Shown one piece after another: positions 2,344 through 4,395 of a stretch of DNA of 4,395 bases. Location of the stretch: IMG/VR virus record IMGVR_UViG_2531839237_000023, one strand, 5' to 3'. The first letter of the stretch is position 1. Each line of letters begins with the position of its first letter. The notes beneath the pieces were generated by a model that worked only from the letters and a program-made list of their open reading frames with translations, ran no database searches and was not told the origin of the DNA. A program made the position numbers and the translations under genes. This DNA is from a virus. Taxonomy: Duplodnaviria > Heunggongvirae > Uroviricota > Caudoviricetes.

Positions 2344-2374
2344 CAATCTTCATCATTAAATAAAAGGAGTGCTT

Positions 2375-3193
2375 ATGTGGATTGTGTTAGTACTGTCACT
2401 GTCAACTCTCAGTTGGCATAAGGTAGTGGCTTTTTCATTGTTGACGGTGTCTGTTGTCCTGGCTGTGCTTAATGATATTATTGATTGGTCGGTGTTATTT
2501 TTTGTTGCTACAATCGTTTTTTTTATTATTTTGAAGTTCAACTGGAAATATAACGCCTGGGCTAAATCTATATATGAAGTTGGCATAGTTTTATCAGCCA
2601 TAGCATTATTTTTCCATCTATGGCCAGGGTTTCACAATCCTGTAGTGCTAAATTCTGTTACTGTTGGCCCTCAAAGTACTCCCTATACAATGTATTTTAA
2701 TTTTGATAAAGCGCTGGTGCCATTTTTGTTAGTCCTGTGTACATCTTCTTTGTTTAAAAAAGAAGTAAAATCAGAAGTGTCTTTGTGGAAGTGGGGGGCT
2801 CTGTCGCTCTCTGTTCCTCTTATCCTGTTTTTGGCTGTTTTTTTTGGTGGATTAAAGCCAGAGATTCATTTTCCTGAGTGGTTGCCAGAGTTTATATTGG
2901 CTAATTTGTTTTTTGTGTCTCTGGCAGAGGAATCATTATTTAGAGGGTATATTCAATCACGGCTATCAGAAGTAACGTCTCCATTGGTTGCATTAATTGT
3001 GGCGGCTTTGTTGTTTGGTTTTTATCACTATTCAGGTGGTGCTTTACTTGTATTATTTGCCACGTTATCTGGTGTTGTGTATGGATTGTCATGGATGTGG
3101 AGTGGGCGTTTGTGGGTTGCCACCCTTTTCCATTTTGGTTTGAATCTGTGTCACTTGTTATTCTTTACCTATCCATTTTTAAAACATAATTGA
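2375..3193 (+). CDS. CPBP family intramembrane glutamic metalloprotease (CAAX protease / Abi family), 272 aa, polytopic membrane protein
   Basis: SD AAGGAG at 2364-2369 with ATG at 2375 (the track's GTG at 2369 sits too close to the SD). Protein is highly hydrophobic with multiple predicted TM segments and carries the three CPBP motifs in canonical order: EESLFR (motif 1, EExxxR), FGFYH (motif 2, FxxxH), HFGLN (motif 3, HxxxN). The gene is much more AT-rich than the upstream phage genes. Confidence 0.85.
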   Translation: MWIVLVLSLSTLSWHKVVAFSLLTVSVVLAVLNDIIDWSVLFFVATIVFFIILKFNWKYNAWAKSIYEVGIVLSAIALFFHLWPGFHNPVVLNSVTVGPQSTPYTMYFNFDKALVPFLLVLCTSSLFKKEVKSEVSLWKWGALSLSVPLILFLAVFFGGLKPEIHFPEWLPEFILANLFFVSLAEESLFRGYIQSRLSEVTSPLVALIVAALLFGFYHYSGGALLVLFATLSGVVYGLSWMWSGRLWVATLFHFGLNLCHLLFFTYPFLKHN

Positions 3194-3273: not shown

Positions 3274-3287
3274 TTTACGTACGTAAA
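3274..3287. repeat. Perfect 14-bp palindrome TTTACGTACGTAAA; nearby shorter inverted repeat TGCAT-N7-ATGCA (3247-3263)
   Basis: Read directly; the sequence equals its own reverse complement. Located in the 286-bp intergenic region between the CPBP gene and the small winged-helix gene. Candidate dimeric-regulator operator; function unknown. Confidence 0.3.
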
Positions 3288-3334
3288 AAATCAGGTATGC
3301 TGTTAAGAGTGGTTATTTCGCCGCATAGCTTGAC

Positions 3335-3356
3335 CCCGCCTCTGAGCGGGTTTTTT
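3335..3356 (+). terminator. Candidate rho-independent terminator (5-bp all-GC stem CCCGC/GCGGG, 6-nt loop, T6 tail) downstream of the CPBP gene
   Basis: Stem 3335-3339 / 3346-3350, loop CTCTGA, then TTTTTT 3351-3356. Short stem, so moderate confidence. A second CCCGC at 3360-3364 could alternatively pair with the GCGGG arm. Confidence 0.5.
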
Positions 3357-3479
3357 GTGCCCGCAAAGTAGCGCAGTGCGTTAAATGTGCTGGTAGTTAT
3401 TAATACAGGTCTTTCAGCTTGCTGGCTTTTTCGACAAGAGTTATTGGTGTGTCACGTTAACCGGAAAGGGTAAAAAGAC

Positions 3480-3677
3480 ATGCTGAAACAGCAGGATATG
3501 ACAGAAACCGCCAGAGTTGTGTTTGATGAATTAAGCGTCACCGAACCGGCGACAGTCGGGGAGATTGCGCAGAATACTTACCTTTCACGCGAACGCTGCC
3601 AGTTAATACTGACCCAGCTGGTTATGGCGGGTCTGGCAGACTATCAGTTCGGTTGTTACAGACGCCTTCAGTCCTGA
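3480..3677 (+). CDS. Small (65 aa) putative winged-helix DNA-binding protein (PapI/FaeA-like pattern)
   Basis: ORF from the track. SD-like GGAAAGGG at 3463-3470 before ATG 3480. Sequence pattern TVGEIAQNTYLSRERCQLILTQLVMAGLA resembles small winged-helix regulators. Stop codon TGA (3675-3677) lies inside a strong terminator hairpin. Family assignment is inference. Confidence 0.55.
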   Translation: MLKQQDMTETARVVFDELSVTEPATVGEIAQNTYLSRERCQLILTQLVMAGLADYQFGCYRRLQS

Positions 3678-3691
3678 AGGCTTTTTTATTT
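3664..3691 (+). terminator. Rho-independent terminator: 7-bp stem GCCTTCA/TGAAGGC, 4-nt loop GTCC, tail TTTTTTATTT
   Basis: Perfect inverted repeat 3664-3670 / 3675-3681 followed by T-run 3682-3687; + strand specific (no T-run on the complement). Immediately terminates the 65-aa ORF. Confidence 0.8.
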
Positions 3692-3711
3692 GTGGTAAAT
3701 GGGCGGCTGGT

Positions 3712-3719
3712 GGGGGGGG
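3712..3719. repeat. Homopolymeric G8 tract within a G-rich block (GGGCGGCTGGTGGGGGGGGCGG, 3701-3722)
   Basis: Read directly. Lies between the terminator at 3664-3691 and the candidate promoter of the AraC-family gene. This is a potential slipped-strand mispairing site. Confidence 0.9.
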
Positions 3720-3747
3720 CGGCACCTGTCAGTCCTTTGCTTATGTG

Positions 3748-3778
3748 TTGATGATAATTTACCTTTTGGGGCTATAAT
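3748..3778 (+). promoter_or_regulatory. Candidate sigma70 promoter for the AraC-family gene (perfect -10 TATAAT 3773-3778; weak -35 TTGATG 3748-3753 at 19-bp spacing)
   Basis: Hexamers read directly. The spacer is suboptimal and there is no extended -10 TG. Location is appropriate, about 35 bp upstream of the ATG at 3814. Confidence 0.3.
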
Positions 3779-3813
3779 TGAGCTAACCAATTGCTAATGA
3801 AAGTAAAATTATA

Positions 3814-4395
3814 ATGGCTGTTGTCTGTTCAGTTATCATGGTTTGCTCCCCAATTAATATTTTTCTTGAAAAGGATACGTTGTCACTTAAGCCAGGCTCA
3901 GTCGTTCTGGCCACCAAATGCATCAGGGAGCTTTTCCTTATGCATTATGGCAAAGTTAAAATTGTCGATATAAGCGAATCCGTCGTAAGTCAATATCTGG
4001 AAAGTCAGCATAAGCTGACGAGGACTCGTCTGACTGACATTCCGCTTTACCTGTTGCTGGAACCCAACAATCCTGCGTTGGCTGCGGCTTTAATTACCAG
4101 CCAGGGATTTTCCGGAGAGGTCACGGATATGTTTCTTATGATGGCCTGCCTGTCTCTGTTTGAAACAGATGAACGGATATTATTATTTTTAAGTGGATGT
4201 TTATCCAGCATAAGTGCCAAAGTCAGGGCGATAATTCAGACAGATATATCAGCAAGCTGGACGCTTGGTGCGATTGCTCTACAGTTGCATATGAGTGAGA
4301 GTTTGTTAAAGATAAAACTGAAAAATGAAGGGGGCATGTTCAGTCGCTTGTTGCTGGAAGAGCGGATGCGTGTTGCTGTAAATATGTTATGTTCC
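3814..4395 (+). CDS. AraC/XylS-family transcriptional regulator, YdeO/AppY/GadX-like subgroup; 3' end truncated by window edge (194 codons present)
   Basis: Frame open from 3787 to the window end with no stop, checked codon by codon. N-terminus MAVVCSVIMVCS resembles the YdeO/AppY N-termini as recalled (M..VCSV..). C-terminal portion SISAKVRAIIQTDISASWTLGAIALQLHMSESLLKIKLKNEGGMFSRLLLEERMRVAVNML is the first HTH of an AraC-type DNA-binding domain. Alternative start ATG 3838. AT-rich with a weak RBS, typical of horizontally acquired AraC regulators. Confidence 0.8.
   Translation, partial: MAVVCSVIMVCSPINIFLEKDTLSLKPGSVVLATKCIRELFLMHYGKVKIVDISESVVSQYLESQHKLTRTRLTDIPLYLLLEPNNPALAAALITSQGFSGEVTDMFLMMACLSLFETDERILLFLSGCLSSISAKVRAIIQTDISASWTLGAIALQLHMSESLLKIKLKNEGGMFSRLLLEERMRVAVNMLCS

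Follow-up and report, generated by a model that had tools for sequence, protein, structure and literature searches.

Upstream of a gene for an AraC-family regulator in an E. coli prophage, an uninterrupted run of eight G is found, and its presence raises the question of whether the run acts as a slippage-driven switch of the gene that follows or belongs to something else. The sequence-only reading of this DNA had proposed that the run would be prone to slipped-strand mispairing and could thereby cause phase-variable expression of the AraC-family gene, and that the G-rich block around it could adopt a non-B structure. We have examined the run within the whole stretch of 4,395 nucleotides in which it lies (IMG/VR record IMGVR_UViG_2531839237_000023), which is called the window and whose positions are used as coordinates throughout. 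The answer that we consider probable is that the G-rich block is composed of a conserved Chi octamer and a mutation-prone G/T-rich tail in the lambdoid-prophage backbone at a cassette boundary and is not a promoter element of the AraC-family gene.

The window corresponds to the segment from Q to the tRNA genes in a lambdoid prophage of E. coli. Over its entire length, it is collinear (94.6%) with ECs1082-ECs1087 of Sp4 in O157:H7 Sakai, and the same architecture is found at ~95% identity in 564 complete E. coli genomes, with the best full-length match being 95.5%; no exact match to the window was hit among the complete E. coli genomes. The first ORF (20-427), which matches phrog_1212 over its C-terminal half, is followed by the genes for a DUF968 protein (429-1478), RusA (1491-1862), the antiterminator Q (1843-2223), and an AT-rich CPBP/Rce1-like intramembrane protease (2369-3193; phrog_13291). 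In the O26 strain RM10386, the counterpart of the first ORF is annotated as frameshifted, and other strains have it as a shorter gene of 279 bp. Also, the CPBP/Rce1-like gene, with T8 runs at 2517-2524 and 2838-2845, sits between Q and a tR'-like terminator. This intrinsic terminator (CCCGCCTCTGAGCGGG and a T run; 3335-3360) probably represents the tR' of the late promoter region and matched no Rfam family; it lies at the point where homology to prophages with other Q types starts (3286-3348). A Rfam scan of the whole window gave no match at E up to 1.

Further downstream is a conserved 65-aa ORF on the + strand (3480-3677), which matches phrog_331 at 3e-37 and is weakly winged-helix (TrmB)-like, its value for Pfam TrmB (0.0034) falling under the family cutoff. 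This small ORF is found upstream of AraC cassettes and of methylase cassettes alike and, as judged by hits to a 77-nt query with GGGTGTTAG, is kept in ~1,950 of 5,426 complete E. coli genomes. It ends in its own intrinsic terminator on the + strand (stem-loop 3664-3681 and then T6, 3664-3687 as a whole), of which the stem is conserved and the loop variable among the relatives, and the hairpin was reproduced in the RNA fold.

The G-rich block, GGGCGGCTGGTGGGGGGGGCGG, then follows on the + strand (3701-3722), exactly where it had been described, with GGGCGGC at both ends (3701-3707 and 3717-3723), and the G8 homopolymer lies inside it at 3712-3719. The first two G of the run are the last two bases of the Chi octamer, and the other six constitute a polymorphic tail. 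G8 is the sole G/C run of at least 8 in the window, and 7 of 200 dinucleotide-preserving shuffles contained such a run, so that G8 is mildly unusual; one other G/C run of this size was found in 90 kb of sampled O157 Sakai DNA. In Sakai Sp4, a G9 run (L066 25314-25322) is located within the annotated gene for the terminase large subunit, ECs_1106, where a frameshift could inactivate packaging; being coding and multi-copy, this run was dropped as a baseline of homopolymer instability. A 40-aa ORF on the - strand (3603-3725) crosses the block and was treated as spurious, because its proline run merely complements the G run. As for the proposed non-B structure, a regular-expression search of either strand for the canonical G-quadruplex motif (four runs of at least 3 G with loops of 1-7 nt) found none, with a two-tetrad pattern at most, and RNA folding of 3655-3790 gave the terminator hairpin only and was no better than shuffled sequence (z = +0.41); this proposal is hence not supported.

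The AraC-family gene itself (3814-4395, + strand) is cut by the end of the window, and its N-terminal 194 codons specify a sequence 98.5% identical to ECs2191 of Sakai Sp11 and 91.2% identical to ECs1087 (psrA) of Sp4. The full-length Sakai orthologue (237 aa) matches HTH_AraC at 2.9e-13 and HTH_18 at 2.4e-09, and in terms of identity, HTH_AraC, and synteny, the product is an AraC-like regulator of the PsrA/PsrB type, with the psrB-like sequence being the closer. The start of the gene has been annotated in two ways: PGAP places it at ATG 3814 (237 aa), which has no clear Shine-Dalgarno sequence, and the original Sakai annotation at the ATG equivalent to 3941 (195 aa), with GGGAG upstream at 3925-3929. 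The 5' UTR length therefore exists in two versions as well. The coding sequence is annotated as intact with every allele of the tract that was seen.

On the + strand, the only sigma-70-like match is a predicted promoter at 3751-3778, in which a -35 hexamer ATGATA (3751-3756) and a -10 hexamer TATAAT (3773-3778) are separated by a 16-nt spacer; the prediction is a consensus match. The run is upstream of the AraC-family gene, and its earlier description as lying just upstream of the -35 hexamer is roughly correct: 31 nt separate the end of G8 from the predicted -35 hexamer, and the run is located at about -66 to -73 from the putative start near 3785. G8 is thus not within the spacer of the predicted promoter and is further upstream than an UP element usually lies.

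The run is outside the AraC cassette as well. The left junction of the cassette is placed approximately at 3750-3756 (near 3753), where alignment with methylase-type prophages is kept to the left and lost to the right; homology to phiP27 stops at 3750, an alignment is recognisable to about 3752, and the GC content changes from about 0.5 to 0.34. The predicted -35 hexamer straddles this junction, the -10 hexamer is in AT-rich DNA specific to the AraC cassette, and G8 lies in the shared flank, ~35 bp away from the cassette. Furthermore, in JJ1886, CFSAN018748, phiP27, and an Stx2a phage, the small ORF, the terminator, and the Chi block are followed by a DNA methyltransferase gene. As seen in these alignments, the G-rich block is backbone DNA common to methylase-type prophages and not a part of the AraC cassette.

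A comparison within Sakai bears directly on the role of the run. Sp11 carries nleG2-3, nleG6-2, and nleG5-2, and with these neighbouring nleG genes we take it to be the equivalent of OI-57, by which ECs2191 would be psrB (Z2104). The tail at Sakai psrA is GGGTGTTAG with no run, and that at the psrB-like locus of Sp11 is G8; since GGGTGTTAG is found at the functionally studied paralogue, psrA, the run would appear to be dispensable. ECs1087 has been named psrA (PMC13502914), and, in a review (PMC10877973, summarising Tree et al. 2011 and Yang et al. 2015), PsrA and PsrB are prophage-encoded AraC-like regulators of EHEC O157:H7 with a reported identity of 90%; we obtained 90.8% between Sakai PsrA (ECs1087) and the psrB-like ECs2191. 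Within the 130 bp before the start codon, the psrA and psrB-like loci of Sakai differ only at the tract and at 3782 (an A/G SNP). The review also reports little effect of a psrB deletion and an effect of a psrA deletion (PMC10877973), and given that the upstream difference is limited to the tract and 3782 while the knockouts differ, some effect of the tract on native expression is conceivable. Our literature search found no promoter data by the psrA/psrB locus tags and no reporter or transcript data by tract length. A link to the HnrS sRNA was considered and rejected, as psrA is an indirect target only and the sRNA is encoded elsewhere.

Directly 3' of Chi, a hypervariable segment is found at 3714-3723 (+ strand), with 10 haplotypes among 44 loci, the most of any stretch of 10 columns in 3400-3900. 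Also among 30 IMG/VR loci, which were not selected by allele, 3714-3723 is the sole region with 5 haplotypes. The variation begins at +2 past the octamer and spans ~8 nt, the 30 nt on the 5' side are invariant, and the flanks of the variable segment are 95-100% conserved when the variable bases are counted after the first six of Chi (GCTGGT). The alleles form a graded series, namely GGGTGTTAG, the interrupted alleles GGGGGTTAG, GGGGTTAG, GGGTGTG, and GGGGGGTG (also given as G6TG), and the pure-run alleles G6, G7, G8, and G9. Carriers of GGGTGTTAG include Sakai psrA, O26, O145, an Stx2k phage, phiP27, Stx2a phages, and non-STEC strains.

Length variation was seen in each collection in which long runs occur. 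When complete E. coli genomes were searched for exact matches of 75-77 nt with the CGG flank, G8 was found in 287, G9 in 13, and G7 in 28 records, where a record with several copies may enter more than one length class. The AraC-type loci in the IMG/VR viral contigs carry GGGTGTTAG (20), G8 (8), G9 (2), G7 (1), and GGGGTTAG (1), and the metagenome contigs carry G7-CGA (9), G6-CGA (1), G8-CGA (1), and GGGTGTTAG (7); a pattern scan of genome contigs for the block gave no match. The 121 methylase-type instances in the IMG/VR viral contigs have one length throughout and no long runs. Indels were accordingly seen in long-G-run alleles only and in none of these 121 loci with GGGTGTTAG-like alleles, and a spread sample of the hits to the GGGTGTTAG query showed no one-off variants. 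The G8 length is hence not invariant among related genomes, and the suspected proneness of the run to slippage is supported by the presence of G6, G7, G8, and G9 in related loci; a run of seven or more G is expected to be modestly unstable.

The lengths nonetheless do not appear to switch rapidly. Strain 86-24 has G9 in each of its three assemblies, and G7 was found in both assemblies of strain RM9872 and also across a group of O145 strains, while G7 with the linked flank changes CGA and GTGA represents a separate common haplotype. Because repeat assemblies of one strain and related strains agree, the tract lengths look inherited within strains and clades. Concerning the origin of the run, the GGGTGTTAG tail is probably ancestral, since it is common to loci with different downstream cassettes (AraC, methylase, phiP27, and Stx2 phages), and the intermediate alleles point to a lengthening of the run through T-to-G changes together with small deletions. 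G8 would thus have derived from GGGTGTTAG by this route, and at six or seven G the run would start changing by ±1 through ordinary slipped-strand mispairing.

What is conserved in the block is the canonical Chi octamer, 5'-GCTGGTGG-3' (3706-3713, + strand), which the sequence-only reading had overlooked. The window contains three Chi where 0.15 would be expected, a number reached by none of 200 shuffles; the second one is on the + strand inside the DUF968 gene (654-661), and the third is on the - strand (1112-1119). In addition, a degenerate Chi that is one base off, GCTGGTAG (3389-3396, + strand), corresponds to an intact Chi in Sp11 and most relatives, position 3395 being A in the window and Sp4 and G in Sp11. 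In most relatives, the 65-aa ORF is bracketed by two co-oriented Chi ~316 bp apart. The Chi at 3706-3713 is intact in all AraC-type loci examined, whether retrieved by BLAST or by pattern, and the one at the same position is intact in 120 of the 121 methylase-type IMG/VR instances, many of the loci having been retrieved by patterns that hold most or all of the octamer. Across 40 kb of the wider Sp4 region, 7 Chi are present on both strands taken together, a density that is near the average for E. coli (one per 4.6 kb) and does not demonstrate selection for the Chi at 3706-3713.

In terms of orientation, the + strand is the direction of the Q, lysis, and terminase genes and of late transcription, and it thus corresponds to the top strand in the lambda map. 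The Chi at 3706-3713 is placed between Q and the lysis/cos end, the position of cos being deduced from the terminase genes of Sp4, and would be met from its 3' side by RecBCD entering at the right (cos) end. In Chi-rich lambdoid phages, top-strand Chi is reported to be the active orientation, and the sites cluster toward the right end (Zheng et al. 2025, PMC12315714). The octamer would therefore be readable by RecBCD coming from the cos end and, if active in vivo, would turn the enzyme from degradation to RecA loading. The cut made by RecBCD falls a few nt on the 3' side of Chi and leaves a recombinogenic 3' end, and flank positions 4-7 alter the cutting several-fold (Taylor et al. 2016, PMC5041463); in vitro, G at flank positions 1-4 is mildly disfavoured and purines at 4-7 are favoured, which leaves the G run with no clear predicted effect on Chi.

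When 3300-4395 was compared with Sakai Sp4 and Sp11, the window was found to be mosaic: it is Sp4-like to 3682 except for a Sp11-like patch at 3554-3626 and, from 3714 on, Sp11-like except for Sp4-like patches at 4179-4185 and 4313. The switch from Sp4-like to Sp11-like sequence falls in a 31-bp interval that includes Chi (3683-3713), bounded by the last Sp4-type marker at 3682 and the first Sp11-type marker at 3714. A junction at this position would fit a Chi-promoted exchange, as a single event measured against two references. BLAST homology with many Stx2 phages also ends at 3714, but this end reflects an allele difference only, because the true cassette junction is near 3753.

If the tract were a phase-variable control, slippage would alter the spacing or the helical phasing of an upstream site relative to the psrB-type promoter, and subpopulations would then differ in the level of PsrB and hence in acid resistance and type III secretion. 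Length variants from G6 to G9 in three data sets are in line with such a control, as is the fact that no other spot in 500 bp is as polymorphic as the tract; so is the Sakai pair, with upstream regions that differ at the tract and one SNP only and knockout phenotypes that are reported to differ. Upstream of the run, however, we found just Chi and the terminator and no recognisable activator site, and the run is away from the predicted spacer, in backbone that methylase-type prophages have in common, while an allele with no run precedes the functional psrA. The variants are ±1 around a modal length and look inherited, whereas classical contingency loci have broad length distributions; E. coli is, moreover, mismatch-repair proficient, and repeat-mediated phase variation is rare there. 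Indeed, the tract is located neither in a reading frame nor in the spacer of the predicted promoter nor in a defined regulator site, and the repeat is not maintained across homologues, among which GGGTGTTAG and other interrupted alleles are common. With the coding sequence also intact, phase-variable expression of the AraC-family gene through the tract is unsupported, and we consider it very unlikely. It might alternatively be supposed that the ±1 variants stem from homopolymer miscalls in 454, Ion Torrent, PacBio, or Nanopore data and that the true length is fixed per haplotype. The variants are nearly all ±1, many of the complete genomes were assembled from long reads, and the drafts in IMG are old; a part of the ±1 variants in public assemblies may well be errors of this kind. 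As an account of the variation as a whole, nonetheless, this is quite unlikely when set against the concordant assemblies of 86-24 and RM9872, the O145 group, and the common G7 haplotype with its linked CGA and GTGA flanks, and the SPAdes-style metagenome contigs, presumably from short reads, have G6 and G8 beside the modal G7.

The coincidence of the variable segment with the place where RecBCD would nick leads to another possibility, in which end processing or priming at the nick is mutagenic or the 3' flank is selected for tuning Chi. Several-fold changes in cutting by flank positions 4-7 (PMC5041463) would agree with this, and so would the confinement of the variation to ~8 nt from +2 beside an invariant 5' side, the Sp4/Sp11 breakpoint within 31 bp including Chi, and the end of Stx2 phage homology at 3714. 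A G/T-rich run accounts for the instability without Chi, however, the 3714 end is an allele difference, the effect of the G run on cutting has no clear prediction (PMC5041463), and only one breakpoint is at hand; the other conserved Chi gives no clean signal, since the Q-specific variable region lies on its 5' side and makes it uninformative. We therefore find this possibility rather improbable, and highly improbable in its strongest form, namely that the bases directly 3' of Chi are a Chi-dependent mutational and recombinational hotspot rewritten repeatedly by RecBCD nicking, end processing, and priming to yield both the allele series and the mosaic junctions; if true, Chi would leave a mutational footprint that can be measured in natural populations of prophages. 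The methylase-type relatives suggest still another origin. In JJ1886 (L069 2513-2550), a perfect 12-bp inverted repeat, GGCTGGTGGGTG-TTAGGGG-CACCCACCAGCC, places Chi on both strands 21 bp apart. The block could then be the left arm of a palindrome serving as an operator or RNA hairpin before the methylase gene, the right arm of which decayed on replacement by AraC while the left arm and the loop drifted into the G run. The perfect repeat is present in about 50 of the 121 methylase-type IMG/VR instances, 3704-3735 of the window is its degenerate counterpart, every AraC-type locus has a degenerate right arm, and the long G runs seen are confined to AraC-type loci. About half of the methylase-type loci have two stem mismatches (CACCTGCCAGCC), though, with no compensatory changes seen in the left arm, and no T-run follows the repeat, so that it is not an intrinsic terminator; we know of no protein that binds the repeat. 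Since the left arm is perfectly conserved in AraC-type loci where its partner is lost, a constraint by Chi or plain recency fits better than a hairpin, and a decayed inverted repeat is considered unlikely.

We thus favor a conserved Chi with a mutation-prone tail as the probable nature of the block, which sits between the terminator of the small ORF and a slot for a DNA-methylase cassette or a psrA/psrB-type AraC cassette; the tail length would then probably have no effect on transcription of the AraC-family gene. This reading removes a tempting interpretation by phase variation from the locus of a virulence-related EHEC regulator. The upstream regions of psrA and its psrB-like paralogue, differing as they do at the tract and one SNP only, offer a clean comparison for reporters, and the tract can also be used as a simple strain marker (G7, G8, and G9). 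Furthermore, Chi, a hypervariable 3' flank, and a mosaic breakpoint coincide here, an association that can be tested more widely.

Compared with known systems, the locus shares with those of PsrA and PsrB the gene order of Q, the small ORF, AraC, and then the ileZ/arg tRNAs, together with the identities of 98.5% and 91.2%; the window differs from them in joining a Sp4-type left part to a Sp11-type right part and in having no exact match among the complete E. coli genomes. It also resembles the moron or cassette slots of lambdoid phages in the late operon upstream of tRNA/stx, where a DNA methylase or an AraC regulator alternates between conserved flanks and the AraC cassette is AT-rich with its own -10 hexamer, but the G run lies outside the cassette by about 35 bp. 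With respect to homopolymers, promoter phase variation is known for the poly-G/C spacers of Neisseria porA/opc and the poly-C tracts of Bordetella fim, and G8 is like them in being in non-coding DNA upstream of a regulator gene and in varying by ±1 between isolates. Unlike them, G8 lies outside the -35/-10 spacer and in no known activator site, its host is mismatch-repair proficient, its length is stable within strains and clades, alleles with no run are common, and the block also occurs where there is no AraC cassette. As a Chi, finally, the octamer agrees with known ones in its exact sequence, its placement in the lambda map (top strand, between Q and the lysis/cos end), its conservation, and its association with a mosaic breakpoint, and it departs from those of Chi-rich lambdoid phages in that the Chi density of Sp4 is only about the E. 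coli average and that its 3' flank is a G run. The block is, therefore, a further instance of features of known kinds.
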